A stretch of DNA of 48,449 nucleotides from Promethearchaeia archaeon (GTDB taxonomy: Archaea > Asgardarchaeota > Lokiarchaeia > Sigyniarchaeales > SOKP01): assembly GCA_029856125.1 (NCBI GenBank), contig JAHQWJ010000030.1, positions 1-48,449 of the forward strand. The letters run 5' to 3'. The notes beneath the pieces are model-generated. The model ran no database searches. It saw nothing but the letters and a program-made list of their open reading frames with translations, and had not been told where the DNA came from. The stretch's first letter is position 1. The number at the start of each line of letters is the position of its first letter. This document shows, one piece after another, positions 6,537 through 13,795 of the stretch. Position numbers and translations under genes: made by a program.

Positions 6537-7328
6537 TTATCGGAAGTACGAATCAGAACTACGATCTTCTTGAGGACCCTTCATAAATTGATTTGCTTGC
6601 TTTTTGTAAGAATCGATTACTTGCTCCATTTCTTCGATCTGTTTGTTTAATTCATCGAAGTTCATTTCAATATTAAAATATTCCATTAATAATACAACCA
6701 ATGCTTTAGATGCCCGGGGATCTAATGTCATCATAGGTAACGGTAATGTTTCTGCTAATAAGCATACTCCAGGAGCAAATCCTTTTTGTCCTGCCCAAGC
6801 GGGTAAAATTCCATTTGCTCCAGCAATTACTCCGCCCTCCATTAATGTAGTATCTTTAAATTTTAAAAAAGATTCATTTATTTTGTCGTTTGTTCCACAA
6901 ATATGTGTTATTGGTTTGTCTCTTACTCTATCAATTACCATTGCACCAGCACTGACGTACATTTTAATTTTACTATTTGTAATTTTATCCATCGCTTCAC
7001 AAAATTTCTGAGAAAAATCAAATACTCCTTGTGAAGTCTGGGGTTGATAATTGGCTGTTAAAATAAAGAGATCAGGTTTATTTTTCTGTTTTCTTGACTT
7101 ATAATAGACTTTTGCTGATGGAATCTCCAATTTACCTTTTTCAACATTTGACTTGGGGGGAAAATCGAAATATTCAATGTCCAAGAATTCTTTGGCTTCA
7201 ATCGAATCTTTAATCGAAGTGATCGCAAGTTTTGCGACCAAAGCAATCCCTGGCCAACCAATCAAAACAATTGGATCGTTTAAATCATCTGGATTTAACT
7301 CAAATTTCTGATTTATGTTTATAATCAT
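6537..7328 (-). CDS. PAC2-family proteasome assembly chaperone
   Basis: 'LIGWPGIALVAKLA', 'GVIAGANGIL', 'GVCLLAET', 'DPRASK', C-terminal HbYX-like 'SYFR'. Confidence 0.85.
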   Translation of the reverse strand: MIININQKFELNPDDLNDPIVLIGWPGIALVAKLAITSIKDSIEAKEFLDIEYFDFPPKSNVEKGKLEIPSAKVYYKSRKQKNKPDLFILTANYQPQTSQGVFDFSQKFCEAMDKITNSKIKMYVSAGAMVIDRVRDKPITHICGTNDKINESFLKFKDTTLMEGGVIAGANGILPAWAGQKGFAPGVCLLAETLPLPMMTLDPRASKALVVLLMEYFNIEMNFDELNKQIEEMEQVIDSYKKQANQFMKGPQEDRSSDSYFR

Positions 7329-7349: not shown

Positions 7350-8363
7350 CTAAATATCAATTATTTTTTCTCCGCAGTGGGGACAAAATTCGATGCGTAC
7401 TTTCATAAATTTCCCACAGAAAGGGCAATACATACCGGAGTTAAGATTGTTAGAAACCTCAGTGTTAGAAGTTTCAAAAATTTGTGACGATTGATAATTT
7501 GGTGATATATATTGAGTTTGTTGTTCTCTACTATTTTTTAAAAAGTCATACAGAGAAGTTAATAGGCAAATAAATAATGGAGCAAATAACAATCCAGGTA
7601 AATTATAAAATAGATCATATAGTATAATTGAACCATAATTTCTCGTAGATGGATTGTACCATGAAGGGTCGTATACTTCGAGTAAGAAAGGAGTAACAAC
7701 CATTTGGAAGATAAAATCGCAAAGAAAAACAAATAAATTGCTAAGTATAAAAATGCCAATTATCTTCCAAAATGCTCCTCTTGCTACTTCTCGAGCTTCT
7801 TTTATAGGTTGAATTCCTTCTTCTGAATGATATGTGAATATGTAAAAAATATAATACCCATAAATGATAATACTTGGAATAAAAAGGAGAAATGACCCTA
7901 CTGCTATTCCAACACCTAATAATAGAATAACAAGCAATAACCTCCCATTAAATGCGTTTTTTAATTCAGTAGTAAAGTTCGAAGGACTACCAGAGAATTT
8001 GTTGAACAAATAATTACTTACTAAACACATAGCGAATACATTGAAAATTGATGATGTTAAATTATTGAAAAACTCAGTACTGATAATTAAAGCGAAGTAC
8101 TCAAACATGACATTAAGATCGTCGTTAGTGAGGGTTGTAGGATCTTTCTGTATAATAAGTTCAATCGCTGGAGTTATGAGATTTAATTGCCAGTTCAAAT
8201 CAGTAACTAACAAATTTTTAATTATTAAACTAATTACAAAAATTAAGGCTAAAGGTATAATTAAAGTCTTGTAGCTCTTGCTAAATAAATATAAGCCTTC
8301 ATAGATGACATCCTTAAACCGTTTATTTGAGACGCTTTTCTGTCTTGGATACCCATCCGACAT
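7350..8363 (-). CDS. multi-pass membrane protein with C-terminal zinc ribbon
   Basis: About 6 TM segments; C-terminal 'CPFCG...FCPHCG'. Confidence 0.8.
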   Translation of the reverse strand: MSDGYPRQKSVSNKRFKDVIYEGLYLFSKSYKTLIIPLALIFVISLIIKNLLVTDLNWQLNLITPAIELIIQKDPTTLTNDDLNVMFEYFALIISTEFFNNLTSSIFNVFAMCLVSNYLFNKFSGSPSNFTTELKNAFNGRLLLVILLLGVGIAVGSFLLFIPSIIIYGYYIFYIFTYHSEEGIQPIKEAREVARGAFWKIIGIFILSNLFVFLCDFIFQMVVTPFLLEVYDPSWYNPSTRNYGSIILYDLFYNLPGLLFAPLFICLLTSLYDFLKNSREQQTQYISPNYQSSQIFETSNTEVSNNLNSGMYCPFCGKFMKVRIEFCPHCGEKIIDI

Positions 8364-8490: not shown

Positions 8491-10398
8491 ATGTACGCGC
8501 AACAACAACCAACACGCCAAATTCCTGGAATAATATCTTATATGGATTATTTTTCATCTAAGAAATCTGCTTATATTCTCCTTTTTAGCGTACCTTCTAT
8601 TCTTGCTGTTTTATCGTTTATACTGAATTCACTTTACACGAATATTTGGAACTTTTATTACCTTTCGAATGTTTTACTAACATTTTACTTAACCTCTGGA
8701 GGAGGTATCATAATATCGGTTATTTTTTACTCAAAACGCTCTCCACTACTTGCTAGTCCCCCGAAGGGATGGTCTTTTCAAATGAATTCTTTTTTTACTG
8801 GAATAATGGGTTTGTCACTTTTAATTGGACAACTAATTACAATCTTCCTTAGAAATATCACGTTTCAAGAAGTGTTTCTCATATTGGGTACTATTATTTC
8901 CTATATCTTCGCATTTGTTGTATATTTTTCGTTTACTACAGCTGGTAAGTATGGAAATATAATTTTAGCATTTGTACAACCAGTAATTGTAATAACGCTC
9001 TACAGTATTTTCGCATCTCCACTTCCATTTTTCTTTTTTATCAGAGCAATCCTTTTCTTTTTAATTTGTGCATTTATTTTTGCGATCCCTTATACAAGAA
9101 GTATGTCTCGAGTAAGCAATATATACAGGCAAGCAACCGGTATAGGAGGATATCCTTTTATTAGAGCTTTCGTACTTTCGATGTTGACCGAGGGTAATGA
9201 TGATTTACTCGAAGGCTTTTTTGATAAAATAGGGGTCAACACCAATGCTTTGATACAATACTTGGCAATCAGAAGCAAGGCTACACAAAAACTAAAAGGT
9301 TTATTCGTCATACCACATGTTCATTTTGGACCTTTTAAAACTTGTGGATCTTCAGATTTACCAGCTCATATCTACGAGGCCTTTAGTCAAATTCAGGGTA
9401 CGACGGTTTATCACACTACAAATGATCACACGCAGAATTTAACTTCTCAGAAAGAACTTGAAAAAGTCTTAAGTAAAATAAAGAGAGATGTGAAATATAT
9501 CGAAGAAGACAAAAAGATAGAATGGATAAAAAAAGTTAATGCCACCACAAGAAGCATGTCGAATTCGGCAAAGTTAATAGGTATAGAGATAAATAATGTT
9601 GCTATAATGTTCCTAACTAGACATCCTTTACCTTCTGATGACATTCAAGCTGAAATAGGGGATAGAATTAGAAAGATAGCAAAAGACAAAGGTTACCGTG
9701 AAGTTATCATAATAGATTCGCATAATTCAATTATAGGGGATGAGGTTTTGATAAGAAACAAATCGATAGAAGCCAATGACCTTATATCTGTTTCAGAGAA
9801 ATTCCTTATTTCCAATAAGGCTAAAGAAAATGACAATAAAATTGTTGTAGAATATGGTGTTGCCAAAGATCTAATGACGGAATACACAGAAAGAGATGGA
9901 ATTGGTATAGGTGGAATAGTTGTTCATTTATTTAAAAACATTGAATCAAGTCAAAAAACAGTGTTTATTCACTTCGATGCAAATAATGCCTATGTTGATA
10001 TTCGATCGTTCGTTTTAAACATGCTACAAAATAGAGGAATCGAAAGGGGGGAAGTTACGACTTCTGATTCTCACACAGTAGCAAGACAATTCACAGCCCG
10101 GGGATATTCTCCTTTGGGTGATAAGATCAAATTAGAAAAGATTCTAGACAAAATTGATAATCTAATAATTAAAGCAGAAAACAATTTAGAAGATGTGGAA
10201 TTTTATTATCACGATTCTATTGTCGAAAATGTTAAGATATGGAACAATCCTCGCTATTTTGAGGTGATTATGAATACACTATTCAAATGCATTAAAGTTT
10301 CTCGTGGACTATTCACATACAGTCTGATAATCCCTGCTTTATTTTCAATAATTTTGCTTCTATTTTTCTATAACATCCAATTTTCTGCTATTTTTTAG
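8491..10398 (+). CDS. DUF2070-family archaeal membrane protein
   Basis: N-terminal TM bundle; 'HVHFGPF', 'HTTNDH', 'DSHN', 'DANN', 'TSDSH' motifs; C-terminal TM. Confidence 0.8.
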   Translation: MYAQQQPTRQIPGIISYMDYFSSKKSAYILLFSVPSILAVLSFILNSLYTNIWNFYYLSNVLLTFYLTSGGGIIISVIFYSKRSPLLASPPKGWSFQMNSFFTGIMGLSLLIGQLITIFLRNITFQEVFLILGTIISYIFAFVVYFSFTTAGKYGNIILAFVQPVIVITLYSIFASPLPFFFFIRAILFFLICAFIFAIPYTRSMSRVSNIYRQATGIGGYPFIRAFVLSMLTEGNDDLLEGFFDKIGVNTNALIQYLAIRSKATQKLKGLFVIPHVHFGPFKTCGSSDLPAHIYEAFSQIQGTTVYHTTNDHTQNLTSQKELEKVLSKIKRDVKYIEEDKKIEWIKKVNATTRSMSNSAKLIGIEINNVAIMFLTRHPLPSDDIQAEIGDRIRKIAKDKGYREVIIIDSHNSIIGDEVLIRNKSIEANDLISVSEKFLISNKAKENDNKIVVEYGVAKDLMTEYTERDGIGIGGIVVHLFKNIESSQKTVFIHFDANNAYVDIRSFVLNMLQNRGIERGEVTTSDSHTVARQFTARGYSPLGDKIKLEKILDKIDNLIIKAENNLEDVEFYYHDSIVENVKIWNNPRYFEVIMNTLFKCIKVSRGLFTYSLIIPALFSIILLLFFYNIQFSAIF

Positions 10399-10437
10399 AA
10401 TCAGGAAGCTTATCTTTGTAGATATGATCTAAATATT

Positions 10438-10455
10438 ACTTAGATATATGTAAGT
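10438..10455. promoter_or_regulatory. 18-bp near-perfect palindrome, candidate operator of the GTPase operon
   Basis: ACTTAGATA|TATGTAAGT (one G/G mismatch), upstream of TATA-like TTTAAAAA at ~10472-10479. Confidence 0.4.
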
Positions 10456-10509
10456 GATTTGACCTTTTTTCTTTAAAAATATTCTTTTCTTTTCGTGATC
10501 GTATAAAAT

Positions 10510-11046
10510 ATGTTGAGTTCAGAAATTTCAAAATTGATGAAGGTGACATTTATAGGGTCGCCAGCGGTTGGAAAAACAACTATGCTACGACTTCTCTCAA
10601 AAGATACGATCGGTAAATTTTATTTCCCAACTCATGGCTTTGATTTGAAAACGATCAAATTAGACGATTATAATATCCGTGTTTGGGATTTTGGTGGCCA
10701 AAGCTCGTACTTAAAGACTTATTCAAGAGATTACCTTCTAGGTTCAGATGTTCTTTTTGTTGTTACTGATTCTACGCCCCGAAATGTTTTAAATTCGCGA
10801 GAATTGATTAAGTTCGCAACACATTTTATCGACAAAGAGTGTCCAATAATTGGCATAGCAAATAAACAAGATTTAACAAAGAATGATGGAAGAATGAGTC
10901 CCAATCGCGTAGAACAATTACTCCATATAAAAACATATGGCCTTACAGCTATAAATCCAAACGAGAGAAACAAATTATTAGATATTATGAGAAAAGAATT
11001 AAACCAAGTTGTATTAAGAAGGAGGTCAAAAGAAGATGAACTTTAA
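10510..11046 (+). CDS. small GTPase, Arf/Rab-like (Ras superfamily)
   Basis: G1 GSPAVGKTT, G2 PTHG, G3 WDFGGQ, G4 ANKQD, G5 LTA. Confidence 0.92.
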   Translation: MLSSEISKLMKVTFIGSPAVGKTTMLRLLSKDTIGKFYFPTHGFDLKTIKLDDYNIRVWDFGGQSSYLKTYSRDYLLGSDVLFVVTDSTPRNVLNSRELIKFATHFIDKECPIIGIANKQDLTKNDGRMSPNRVEQLLHIKTYGLTAINPNERNKLLDIMRKELNQVVLRRRSKEDEL

Positions 11047-11590
11047 TGAAGATGAACTTTTTGGAGCAGCTCTAATAGGCTTTGATCTAATTGATGGTCC
11101 GTTCATAAAATGGAAGAAGGAATATGGAACTCCGTCAAATCTAATGAAATTAGACGATTTTGCCATGAACTTCTATCTAGCATTCAGAGGTGGTAATACG
11201 GGGAAGAAACCAAGAGCCATTTTATATGATAAATTCTATATTGTTGCTTTTCCTCAAGATCTTGAGCTTTGTTGCTTATTTATGAAACCTCAAGGAATAG
11301 ATAGGAATATTAATCAGTTAAACAAAATTGCTTCAAGAATAACTCATGAGATGGATTCTATTGAACAAGAAGTCGATATACCGGTTAATTCTGATGAAGA
11401 TGCAATCGAAGAAATGAAGAGAATAATCGTAAATCTATTGAGTGGTGTAGAAATGTCCACCCCAGAGTTAAGAAGATACTTCAAATTGAGTAACTCACAG
11501 ATATGGAAGGTAATGTCTACTTTAGAAAGCTCTTTAAAAGTTAAACGTGCTCGTAAACAAGGAAGAACTGTTTTATGGACCGCTAACTAG
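11036..11590 (+). CDS. N-terminal longin/uDENN-like domain fused to C-terminal winged helix-turn-helix
   Basis: 'GAALIGFDLIDGP' (FDxxxGP hairpin), beta-beta-alpha-beta-beta-beta-alpha pattern, acidic linker, then 'IIVNLL..MSTPELRRYFKLSNSQIWKVMSTLE..KVKR..QGRTVLW'; overlaps GTPase stop by 11 nt. Confidence 0.7.
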   Translation: MNFNEDELFGAALIGFDLIDGPFIKWKKEYGTPSNLMKLDDFAMNFYLAFRGGNTGKKPRAILYDKFYIVAFPQDLELCCLFMKPQGIDRNINQLNKIASRITHEMDSIEQEVDIPVNSDEDAIEEMKRIIVNLLSGVEMSTPELRRYFKLSNSQIWKVMSTLESSLKVKRARKQGRTVLWTAN

Positions 11591-11620
11591 TTTTTTTTCT
11601 AATTTTTTATATTTTTATTG
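11590..11620 (+). terminator. oligo-T terminator tracts after the GTPase operon
   Basis: T8 and T6 runs immediately after TAG. Confidence 0.5.
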
Positions 11621-11626
11621 AATTAA

Positions 11627-12433
11627 TTACCTAATATGATTCCAATTTTTCATTTTTGTATAATATCTTGAAAACATAATGTAGCAGATATTAGGCATTT
11701 CCTTGTCAAGGTTATTTAAAGTGATATATCGGAGAATGTGATTGATTAGGAAAATTCCCAGAAATTCCATGTGATAGCTACCTACTTTTTTAGAGAGTAC
11801 TTCACCTATGTAAGCGATATTTAGTTTCTCCCGAGCGTTGTAAGTTAATTCAATAGAGATACCTGGAAATATTTCCTTTATAATTTGCCACTTATCAGCT
11901 TTTTTCCTCACTATAGCACCAAGAAATATGGCTAAATCATTTACATCACTATCTTTCAATAAACTAAATGGCTCGGTTCTTTGAATTAAAACCTTTTGCA
12001 TTAATTCTGATTTTTTATCATAAGATTGTTCAAAGGGTTCTCTATTTTGAATCATTCTCTCCATAAAATTAAAAATTATATCAACATAAGTAATGCTATC
12101 TTCACCAGGGATTATATGTACTCTTTCACCTGAAAAAAAGCATTTAAATTCTGCGGTAACCCCATCTCCAAATTCATCGCCGAAATATGTAAAAACTAGA
12201 TGTATAATAACCTCTGGAAACATTTCTAATGTAATCGTCCAATCTTCGTTAAAGCCTATATTTTCGATTATGCCTCCAATGTCCTCTGAAATTATCTTCT
12301 TAAGCGTATCCATGTTGATATCAACGAAGAGCTGATGTTTTGCTTTGCTAACATCTTTTAATTCCTTAACATGGGGGCCTGTTACCCCAGTTGCGTCAAT
12401 TTGTCCTACAGTCCAATATTTAGTTCCAGTTAT
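11627..12433 (-). CDS. internally duplicated protein, DUF3786-like; probable ATA start at 12433 (first ATG at 12313)
   Basis: Frame open from 12445 to 11627; SD-like GGTGGA just upstream of ATA; two repeats 'WTITLEMFPEVIIHL' / 'WQIIKEIFPGISIEL'. Confidence 0.6.
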   Translation of the reverse strand: MTGTKYWTVGQIDATGVTGPHVKELKDVSKAKHQLFVDINMDTLKKIISEDIGGIIENIGFNEDWTITLEMFPEVIIHLVFTYFGDEFGDGVTAEFKCFFSGERVHIIPGEDSITYVDIIFNFMERMIQNREPFEQSYDKKSELMQKVLIQRTEPFSLLKDSDVNDLAIFLGAIVRKKADKWQIIKEIFPGISIELTYNAREKLNIAYIGEVLSKKVGSYHMEFLGIFLINHILRYITLNNLDKEMPNICYIMFSRYYTKMKNWNHIR

Positions 12434-12475: not shown

Positions 12476-13795
12476 TTATTTTTTTTTGAATTTTGCGATA
12501 AAAAATCCTTTTGTTCGGTGGGTTGCTGGAAACAATCTTCCTGTTCCGGGAATATGCTGGTGGTTTATCTTATAGCTAGGAGAAAACCAGTTTGGAAGCT
12601 CCATAGGCTTAAAATGGTTTAAAACTTTTAACACCTGCAGCTCCCCTTCCTCGGGATAAAGGCTACATGTAGAATAAACGAGAATTCCAGAAGGTTTTAA
12701 TAAATTAATAGCACTTTTAAGTAACTTTTCCTGGAGTACAAGATTTTGATGTAGGAATCCCTCATTCTGTCGCCATTTAAGTTCGGGATTTGTCGAAAAA
12801 GTTCCACTTCCAGTACAAGGTGCATCTAATAAGATCTTATCGAAGAAATTGGTAAATCTAACGGGTAATTTAATACCATCTGAATTCATAAGGTTAGTGT
12901 TTAATACATTTAACTTCTTTAAAAGTTGTTTTGTTCCTTTTAATCGCTGTTTGCTAAAGTCGTTGGCTAATATGGTAGCTTTATTTTGAGATAACTGTGC
13001 AATAATGCTAGTTTTAATTCCAGGAGCCGCACACATATCGCATATCAACTCGTTTGCTTGAGGTTCTAAAAGGTGAGTTACCGCAAAAGAAGCCTTATCC
13101 TGAATGACGAGTTTGCCTTCTTTATACAATCTATTCAAGATGATTTTCTTTTTATTTTTTAAATCTGTATAAAAAACTTCTGAGAAATTTGAATCTTGTT
13201 TAGCATTAATTCCTAATTCTTCTAAATCCTTAAAAACAATGTTCAATGAATTTTGTTGATTTTTTTCATATGGCAAATCATTAAGTCGAAAAAATAGTAT
13301 TTTATTGCCCTCCTTACCATCCATTTGCTTAAAATTGGCTCTAATTGTTTCTAAATCCATTATAGGTGCAAGTTTTTTAATTGAAAAAGTTGGAATTGCG
13401 ATTTCTAAACTTAACCTTTCTATTTCGTTTTTTCCTTTTAATGCTTGCTTCCACGAAAAGACATCAAGTTTCTTTATGAGAGCTAATTCATCTGAGCCGA
13501 ATTTGAGTTCATTACCTACGGCTATAGCATTTTCTTTCTCCCAAACAATTCGATAAATAGCAATAAGATACTTAGCATTACTATAATTATTAGAAACATG
13601 TGATTCATTAGTAAATTTAAGGTTTCGCTTTAAAATGAAATTAATTTTATTCCAATATCGGAGTATTTCGTAATAATAATGAATTAACTCAGCATTACTA
13701 CGATTTTTAATAGAAAGAATGCCTGTTTTTCGCTCAATAAATTTAGTTAATAATTTAACTAATTCATTTATAACTTTTTGATTGATACTAAACAC
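12476..13795 (-). CDS. RsmB/NOL1/NOP2 (NSUN) RNA m5C methyltransferase
   Basis: 'IQDKAS', 'DMCAAPGIKT', 'LLDAPCTGSG', 'YSTCS', 'GFFIAKF'; GTG start. Confidence 0.9.
   Translation of the reverse strand: MFSINQKVINELVKLLTKFIERKTGILSIKNRSNAELIHYYYEILRYWNKINFILKRNLKFTNESHVSNNYSNAKYLIAIYRIVWEKENAIAVGNELKFGSDELALIKKLDVFSWKQALKGKNEIERLSLEIAIPTFSIKKLAPIMDLETIRANFKQMDGKEGNKILFFRLNDLPYEKNQQNSLNIVFKDLEELGINAKQDSNFSEVFYTDLKNKKKIILNRLYKEGKLVIQDKASFAVTHLLEPQANELICDMCAAPGIKTSIIAQLSQNKATILANDFSKQRLKGTKQLLKKLNVLNTNLMNSDGIKLPVRFTNFFDKILLDAPCTGSGTFSTNPELKWRQNEGFLHQNLVLQEKLLKSAINLLKPSGILVYSTCSLYPEEGELQVLKVLNHFKPMELPNWFSPSYKINHQHIPGTGRLFPATHRTKGFFIAKFKKK

Follow-up and report, generated by a model that had tools for sequence, protein, structure and literature searches.

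The window analyzed here is a 48,449-nucleotide stretch of contig JAHQWJ010000030.1 (assembly GCA_029856125.1, a Promethearchaeia archaeon), and our subject is a pair of genes on its + strand. The first encodes an Arf-like small GTPase; the second encodes a protein, called the partner below, that is predicted to join a longin-type domain to a winged helix-turn-helix (wHTH). A six-frame list of open reading frames (ORFs) gives products of 178 and 184 aa, the genes sharing 11 nt at 11036-11046, exactly the overlap that a first-pass annotation of this DNA had described. The sequence AGGAGGT lies 9 nt upstream of the partner ATG, and three oligo-T tracts follow the partner stop codon directly. As archaea use oligo-T transcription termination, these tracts probably serve as the terminator. 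The next gene (11627-12313) is convergent, so that the GTPase and partner genes form a self-contained unit; the proposal of a two-gene unit ending in T-tracts therefore holds. On the upstream side a TATA-like box, a putative promoter element, is centered about 32 nt ahead of the GTPase ATG, which would imply a very short leader. The gene arrangement supports a two-gene operon, in which translation of the partner is predicted to be coupled to that of the GTPase.

The GTPase and its longin-wHTH partner

The GTPase matches the Pfam Arf family (PF00025) at 5e-19 with 68.9 bits, against a cut-off of 22.3. Other GTPase families score lower (Roc 49, Ras 42 and Gtr1_RagA 18.7 bits), and the nearest solved relatives are Arl3, Arl2 and Arf1, with E values of 4e-15 to 1e-11. 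All five G motifs are present and are conserved in the orthologues (G1 GSPAVGKT, G2 T41, G3 WDFGGQ, G4 NKQD and G5 TAI), in agreement with the intact Arf-like GTPase of the first-pass annotation. Eukaryotic Arfs have an N-terminal amphipathic helix and a Gly2 for myristoylation. The window protein has neither Gly2 nor a long N-terminal amphipathic helix, only about nine residues (MLSSEISKL) preceding strand 1, and for this reason we call it Arf-like and not a canonical Arf. Since the catalytic Gln is retained, an arginine finger supplied in trans would make sense.

The partner family comprises 518 homologues, all in Asgard (Promethearchaeota) assemblies, but these collapse to about 31 clusters at 50% identity; the family is thus narrow and well conserved. 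The window protein has no Pfam match, neither its N-domain nor those of 26 relatives match Pfam or NCBIfam, and sequence searches with the N-domain against the PDB gave no match. Two AlphaFold2 (AF2) models were made, one of the full-length partner with 26 diverse members (predicted local distance difference test score, pLDDT, of 81) and one of the N-domain only with 21 sequences that included longin-only relatives (pLDDT 79.6). The modeled N-domain has strands at 8-17 and 21-29, a helix at 39-51, strands at 61-63, 68-74 and 77-83, and a helix at 92-112. In both models DSSP gives the order beta-beta-alpha-beta-beta-beta-alpha, with no roadblock N-terminal helix. Residues G21-P22 (nt 11096-11101) are placed at the first hairpin turn (F-D-x3-G-P) and are invariant over the 21-26 diverse members of two alignments. 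Residues D17, G21, P22 and P59 are invariant in 21/21 sequences, and F16, Y47, F50, G53, F67 and F82 nearly so. A K-P-R60 motif falls in the alpha1-beta3 loop, with R60 kept in the window's family and in most lineages.

Structural searches place this domain in a single superfamily. With the full model, VIA matched the N-domain to the TRAPP longin 3cue_A (Z 9.8 over 103 residues), to 7e2c_A (Z 9.4) and to MglB, while Foldseek aligned the whole model to the GATOR1 NPRL2 chains 9v0j_A and 9o5d_D at E 6e-3. With the N-domain alone, every Foldseek match belongs to the longin/roadblock superfamily, at E 3e-3 and weaker. Nearly all of the VIA top 50 belong to it as well, with Z values of only 5.8-8.0 and a few structural-genomics chains of unassigned fold. 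Dynein LC7, BLOC-3, MglB, roadblocks of the cultured Lokiarchaeon MK-D1, LAMTORs, Mon1-Ccz1, AP sigma and C9orf72 are among the matches to the isolated domain. The nearest ESM Atlas cluster (score 0.77) carries Pfam NPR2 in 19% of its members, a weak lead. As judged from the models, the longin/roadblock fold is sound at the superfamily level, with longin-type strand order. Thus, of the longin/uDENN domain proposed in the first-pass annotation, the longin topology and the F-D-x3-G-P turn stand. A more specific uDENN/NPRL2 affiliation, for which the GP motif speaks, is putative; the NPR2 and Folliculin models find no match.

An acidic stretch at about 105-126 links the two domains; its pLDDT falls below 50 at 114-116, and its sequence and length vary in the alignment. 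The modeled C-domain consists of three helices (121-165) followed by a two-strand wing (169-183) that bears K-Q-G-R. VIA matched it to PH1932, NolR, HlyU and ArsR-type chains (Z 10.7-9.5, over 60-63 residues at 1.5-2.6 A), Foldseek to ZitR, HlyU and SqrR, and an ESCRT-II chain is also among the fold matches, at Z 8.8. Nine of the 26 relatives match Pfam HTH_11 (best 7e-8), and matches to HTH_DeoR and to HTH_5/ArsR reach 1e-7 each. The window partner itself gives marginal NCBIfam matches (E 0.03-0.13), of which the relevant ones fall on residues 126-183 and are to SdpR, Sta1 and ArsR-type wHTH models (SdpR/ArsR at E 0.04-0.13). A recognition helix of DeoR/HTH_11 type, S-x-x-T-I-R-R-Y-L, is present in the alignment of distant members. 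From sequence and model, the C-domain is recognizably a wHTH of the type found in prokaryotic transcription factors (ArsR/HTH_11/DeoR) and not an NPRL2-type C-terminal domain; the acidic linker and the basic wHTH with a 'QGR' wing had been predicted, and both are seen here. A Z-alpha (Z-DNA-binding) identity was considered on the strength of a match to PKZ Z-alpha at E 0.008 and was rejected, since the positions at which Z-alpha contacts DNA through Asn and Tyr are, in that alignment, W157 and S161 of the partner.

Conservation of the pairing was followed through a close set of 80 loci, taken from a collection of genomes at species level. In all of them (80/80) the partner gene is immediately preceded, in the same orientation, by the GTPase orthologue. 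The two genes overlap by 14, 11, 4 or 1 nt in 77/80 and are separated by 1-16 nt in 3/80, and 72/80 carry a GGAG-core site at -18 to -4 of the partner start. The two genes are in different frames at every locus. The GTPase gene is still the immediate upstream neighbor at 11 distant loci (L112 and L118-L127), where the partner is 28-53% identical. Conservation of the pairing had been named beforehand as a point on which the proposal could fail, and it was found at all of these close and distant loci. With 518 homologues of the partner and the pair kept at every close locus, the arrangement goes well past what chance would give. In a survey of 400 genomes of the phylum, 123/134 members of the window's GTDB family have a single copy of the partner gene, and the partner family is present throughout the order and the class, as well as in a few other Asgard lineages. 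Searches with the window proteins (tblastn, E<=1e-3) did not find the genes that flank the pair in the window, those for the DUF2070 protein and for the convergent 228-aa protein, in the 17 distant loci L111-L127, paired loci included. Four lineages have longin-only members of 112-150 aa that keep the GP turn, lack the wHTH and have no adjacent GTPase; in one further lineage (L112) the GTPase is paired with a longin-only form. At L111 two genes beside a longin-only member, both read by eye, encode a coiled-coil protein ending in a helix-turn-helix-like segment (51-995, +) and a small HTH-plus-zinc-ribbon-like protein (997-1320, -).

The adjacency could in principle mean co-expression only, the partner being a one-component regulator with a longin domain that responds to some signal other than the GTPase. 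Overlapping, Shine-Dalgarno-coupled genes have nevertheless been kept over 28-100% identity while the other neighbors change, and longin/roadblock domains are canonical small-GTPase platforms. We consider this explanation highly improbable, even though longin-only relatives stand alone, without a GTPase neighbor, in four lineages, and even though Asgard GTPases are generally not found in operons with longins or roadblocks, those of MK-D1 (Ca. Prometheoarchaeum syntrophicum) being generally outside such operons and hard to match (Tran et al., PMC10933270).

A promoter dyad shared with ftsZ1

Upstream of the TATA-like box lies a dyad with the consensus RTAWTAY-N4-RTAWTAY, to which the window copy has one mismatch; its half-site centers are 11 bp apart. 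Alignment of 78 upstream regions delimits a conserved element about 70 nt before the GTPase ATG, composed of RTAWTAY-N4-ATATTAY followed by a GATTCATAT-like box, with unconserved flanks. When a position weight matrix (PWM) of this element was scanned against the whole 3.69-Mb genome, the window site ranked top at 24.5 and three other sites reached at least 18, compared with 0 sites >=18 in 3 Mb of a Markov null. The second-best site lies 81 nt upstream of ftsZ1 (Pfam Tubulin 1e-44, FtsZ_C 1e-30), counted from the dyad start to the ATG. Another precedes, by 83 nt from dyad start to start codon, the gene of a second Arf-like GTPase, which stands alone, and the remaining one lies between a thioesterase gene and a PNPOx-like gene.

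Counting dyads with at most one mismatch within 160 nt upstream, we find one at 77/77 related GTPase operons (46 perfect) and at 28/30 ftsZ1 relatives (17 perfect), the latter at a fixed position of -77 to -94. The control genes carry it in 1/51 loci (DUF2070) and in 1/72 loci (the 228-aa gene). The dyad common to the GTPase operon and ftsZ1 is real and family-wide. Lokiactin has it in 4/28, in the window's own genus only, so the actin link is genus-limited; xerA in the window genome has no site with <=1 mismatch. Strict dyads also precede ftsZ1, ftsZ2, sepF (140-190 nt upstream), the second Arf-like GTPase and a Roadblock/LC7 gene.

The second Arf-like GTPase (contig 138: 74785-75261, 158 aa, Pfam Arf 2e-19) is 34% identical to the window GTPase, has a perfect dyad at 74702-74719 and no longin gene adjoining it. 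The Roadblock/LC7 protein (contig 84: 51200-51607, 135 aa, Pfam 2e-8) has its strict dyad at 51131-51148, about 69 nt upstream from dyad start to start codon. Coordinates of the main features are collected in Table 1.

Table 1 Features of the two-gene locus in the window, and dyad-bearing ftsZ1, ftsZ2 and sepF genes on other contigs of the same genome
Feature	Position	Strand	Basis or remark
Extended conserved promoter element: dyad, then GAT(T/A)(C/T)ATAT box	10421..10452	+	Top whole-genome PWM match, 24.5
Promoter-upstream dyad ATATGAT-CTAA-ATATTAC	10422..10439	no strand	Sequence read; conserved in relatives
TATA-like box TTTAAAAATATT	10472..10483	+	Sequence read; conserved in aligned upstream regions
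Arf-like small GTPase, 178 aa	10510..11046	+	G1-G5 intact, catalytic Gln64 in WDFGGQ
Shine-Dalgarno AGGAGGT for partner start codon	11020..11026	+	Within 3' end of GTPase gene; sequence read
Predicted longin/roadblock-superfamily domain, partner residues 1-112	11036..11371	+	AF2 models, structural searches, alignments
Acidic flexible linker core, partner residues 113-120	11372..11395	+	Low pLDDT, variable in alignment
Predicted basic wHTH, partner residues 121-184 + stop	11396..11590	+	Wing at 169-183; VIA, Foldseek, Pfam in relatives
Oligo-T tracts T8, T6, T5 closing the two-gene unit	11591..11616	+	Sequence read; directly after partner stop
ftsZ1 + dyad	contig 84: 140259-141371, dyad 140178-140195		Dyad upstream of gene
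ftsZ2 + dyad	contig 65: 6894-5752, dyad 6928-6945		Dyad upstream of gene
sepF ORF + dyad	contig 7: 7967-7626, dyad 8154-8171		Dyad upstream of gene

The DUF2070 membrane protein (8491-10398, +; Pfam 1e-85) is encoded directly upstream of the pair and is syntenic in most close relatives, not in distant ones. The convergent 228-aa protein (- strand) has no Pfam match and adjoins the pair only among the close loci (77/80); a weak lead from the ESM Atlas (score 0.85) is to DUF3786-like proteins. Neither neighbor is regarded as belonging to the unit. Beyond it lies an ordinary gene for an RsmB/F-type rRNA methyltransferase (12476-13795, -; Pfam 1e-54). One locus, L002 (DATKTW010000082.1), is labelled 'Candidatus Nanopelagicaceae bacterium' and encodes counterparts, 82-89% identical, of the DUF2070 protein, the GTPase, the partner and the 228-aa protein; as judged from these sequences, the contig is probably mis-binned.

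What the pair may do

Taken together, these results bear out what the first-pass annotation described and partly support its interpretation, which allowed either a GTPase-controlled DNA-binding protein or a stripped-down NPRL2/3-like GAP/GEF. From the observed gene structure, folds, conserved pairing and shared cis-element we infer the interaction of the two proteins, a GTPase-activating protein (GAP), guanine nucleotide exchange factor (GEF) or effector role for the partner, DNA binding, and its targets. The explanation that we favor, and hold to be moderately probable, is a conserved Lokiarchaeia-type operon for a cognate GTPase and longin-wHTH pair, with a DNA-directed output and co-regulation with ftsZ1. 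The longin domain, probably dimeric as in roadblock/longin platforms, would bind the co-translated GTPase at its switch regions, either to read the nucleotide state or to regulate it in the manner of a GAP, with the invariant G-P turn and (in this lineage) R60 placed near the nucleotide. The flexibly linked basic wHTH would supply the DNA-directed output of the complex. The operon itself would be co-regulated with the division gene ftsZ1 through the shared 7-N4-7 dyad upstream of the TATA box. Given that shared dyad, the pair most likely acts in the control of cell division or the cytoskeleton.

Several results weigh against this explanation. The GAP longins are not ranked above other longins and roadblocks in the fold searches with the N-domain alone, and neither Pfam NPR2 (PF06218) nor Folliculin (PF11704) stands among the 25 most-matched families when 26 members are searched at E<=10. 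Several lineages have L, Q, M or V in place of R60, and beyond close relatives R51 is not conserved. An arginine-finger GAP mechanism thus cannot be general for the whole family, and we regard it as plausible in the window's lineage. The window partner's own wHTH falls under the Pfam thresholds, and a search for longer forms found no fused GTPase-partner protein, which is weak evidence. The strict dyad occurs at 15 sites genome-wide compared with about 17 expected by our own estimate; as it is not over-represented, only its placement is informative. Finally, in 3/5 genomes with a family member that has no wHTH, an ftsZ paralogue carries the dyad at -66 to -72, and no dyad was seen at ftsZ in several distant genomes that do have a wHTH-bearing member. 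None of five genomes lacking the family altogether had it. The dyad at ftsZ in genomes without the wHTH means that a different factor may bind it.

As to the factor that binds the dyad, the evidence for the partner is mixed. The dyad accompanies the operon in 5/11 distant loci, compared with a background of 0.026 per 150 nt, and two others have variant palindromes with 7-N4-7 geometry. None of the five longin-only genes examined has the dyad upstream. A spacing of 11 bp between half-sites would fit binding by a dimeric wHTH. The longin-wHTH dimer is one candidate, though unproven, among possible dyad-binding factors. In its strongest form this would make the partner a GTPase-gated transcription factor, whose dimer would bind the dyad, autoregulate the operon and control ftsZ1 together with other dyad-bearing or cytoskeletal genes, the GTP or GDP form of the GTPase switching DNA binding. 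The half-site spacing, the activator-type position of the dyad upstream of the TATA box, its presence at every related operon and at nearly all ftsZ1 genes, and the way that it tracks the wHTH-bearing operon into distant lineages, variant palindromes included, while the longin-only genes lack it, would all suit such a switch. We nevertheless judge it unlikely, since dyads stand at ftsZ paralogues in genomes without the wHTH fusion and since other candidate binders exist.

One alternative candidate is a 121-aa ORF on contig 18 (C18:185158-185523, L134), which has no family match, lies directly after an actin paralogue and has two dyads in its promoter, at 185073-185120. A 117-aa ORF on contig 136 (57888-58241, L133), also without a family match, has two dyads at 57835-57882. 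At eight Asgard loci (L182, L183, L189, L190 and L194-L197) ftsZ is directly preceded by a coding region ending in ...RDLLK-x-ELWE, presumably a CdrS-like ribbon-helix-helix gene. Such a presumed gene also precedes ftsZ in some of the distant wHTH-bearing genomes that show no dyad there. In the window's family ftsZ1 has its own dyad-bearing promoter instead of this preceding coding region.

Alternatively, the partner could be a pure regulator of the GTPase cycle with no DNA output, in which the longin would be the GAP and the wHTH a protein-contact or GEF-like module, a GAP and a GEF fused in one chain. In the actinobacterial conservon, one operon encodes a small GTPase (MfpB), a roadblock protein that is its GAP (MfpD) and a DUF742 protein with an HTH (MfpC), which acts as the GEF (PMC9769811, PMC11343762); this raises the prospect that the wHTH of the partner contacts the GTPase rather than DNA, the same three domain types being encoded together here. 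Winged helices are also protein modules in NPRL2/3 and in ESCRT-II, a chain of which is among the fold matches, and the dyad at ftsZ is not tied to the presence of a wHTH. However, the relatives match DNA-binding HTH families at 1e-7, with a DeoR-like recognition helix and the basic wing kept, and the dyad is seen at operons whose partner bears a wHTH but at none of the longin-only genes. By analogy, then, an output confined to the GTPase would be possible, though doubtful.

A miniature nutrient-type GAP of the GATOR1/folliculin kind, an NPRL2/FLCN precursor acting on an Arf/Rag-like GTPase and unrelated to DNA or division, appears very unlikely. The GP turn is common to NPRL2, FLCN and SMCR8 (PMC12290439), NPRL2-like longins occur in Asgard (10.1101/2020.10.19.343400), and the whole-model NPRL2 alignment and the NPR2-containing ESM Atlas cluster, the latter a weak lead, point the same way. 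But besides the silent NPR2 and Folliculin models, in the whole genome NPR2 matched nothing and Folliculin gave no more than a sub-threshold match away from the pair, at C18:112888, and the operon lacks both a second longin subunit and a DEPDC5-like gene. The Arf score of the GTPase lies far above that for Gtr1/RagA, the C-domain is of the prokaryotic transcription-factor type, and the promoter is common to ftsZ1 and not to metabolic genes.

Asgard genomes encode dozens of small GTPases and of longin/roadblock proteins. The operon provides one fixed, deeply conserved GTPase-longin pair amid GTPases that can rarely be matched by gene order (PMC10933270). Under the favored explanation of a cognate pair co-regulated with ftsZ1, the fused DNA-binding-type domain and the dyad shared with ftsZ1 offer a concrete hypothesis in which a GTPase module of eukaryotic type is connected with DNA and with cell division. 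If, in addition, the GTPase were to gate a transcription factor, then in the closest archaeal relatives of eukaryotes a G protein would act on genes in a single step, as a switch tied to division.

Comparison with known systems

Longin/roadblock dimers are established platforms for small GTPases, as in MglA-MglB, TRAPP, Mon1-Ccz1, Ragulator, GATOR1, FLCN-FNIP and C9orf72-SMCR8. The GAP-type members resemble the partner in several respects. Like C9orf72-SMCR8, which acts on Arf, and FLCN-FNIP and GATOR1 NPRL2-NPRL3, which act on Rag, the partner has the predicted longin fold with an invariant G-P at the beta1-beta2 turn, a basic residue (R60) in the neighboring alpha1-beta3 loop in most lineages, and a putative Arf-like client with a catalytic Gln. 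A GP turn beside an Arg finger has been described as the mark by which GAP-type longins (FLCN, NPRL2, SMCR8, C9orf72) are known, and 15 Asgard longins have it too; whether ArfR or Rag GTPases are clients of the Asgard proteins is a question put by the authors of that work (PMC12290439). The partner is compared with these published Asgard 'FLCN/SMCR8-type' longins by way of the published description of their GP motif. Fusions of NPRL2-like longins to prokaryotic signaling domains have been reported in Asgard genomes (10.1101/2020.10.19.343400). Unlike the GAP longin complexes, the partner is a single small protein with no second longin and no DENN/NPRL2 C-terminal domain; its Arg is not invariant, it has no NPR2/Folliculin match, and it is fused to a wHTH of prokaryotic transcription-factor type.

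MglA-MglB of Myxococcus and Thermus likewise unites two genes, for a small GTPase and for a partner from the roadblock superfamily; the MglB dimer covers the switch regions, and MglB (3t1r_A) is among the best fold matches to the partner (Z 9.1 with the full model, Z 7.7 with the domain alone). MglB differs in having the roadblock N-terminal helix and no DNA-binding domain, and the window GTPase scores best as Arf. The one-component wHTH regulators (ArsR/SmtB, HTH_11/BirA-type, DeoR, MarR) share with the partner a C-terminal wHTH with a basic wing, an N-terminal dimerizing or sensing domain and a palindromic candidate operator in their own promoter. Here, unlike in those regulators, the 'sensor' is a GTPase-docking fold and the presumed ligand a protein switch; its domains follow the opposite order to those of ArsR/MarR. 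The haloarchaeal ArvA vesiculation operon was rejected as the same system, its partners being DUF2073 and DUF2072 with no longin-wHTH, and the 'Dip' division-positioning system was found to have no bearing on the pair.

We found no paper on the longin-wHTH fusion or on its operon with an Arf-like GTPase, in a search that did not cover the large supplementary tables of Asgard surveys. The first-pass annotation had gone further in stating that no characterized system has such an architecture, which needs qualifying in view of the published Asgard GP-motif longins (PMC12290439) and of the conservon (PMC9769811, PMC11343762). The likeness to the conservon/mfp system is one of domain content: a Ras-superfamily GTPase is encoded with roadblock-superfamily and HTH domains. 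In the conservon these domains are spread over MfpB/CvnD (the GTPase), MfpD/CvnB and MfpC/CvnC, together with a kinase-like MfpE/CvnA, whereas in the window the longin and the HTH are fused, the unit has two genes and no kinase gene, the GTPase is Arf-like and not MglA-like, the platform has longin and not roadblock topology, and the lineage is Asgard. The conservon is an analogue of the GTPase/longin-wHTH pair, not the same system.

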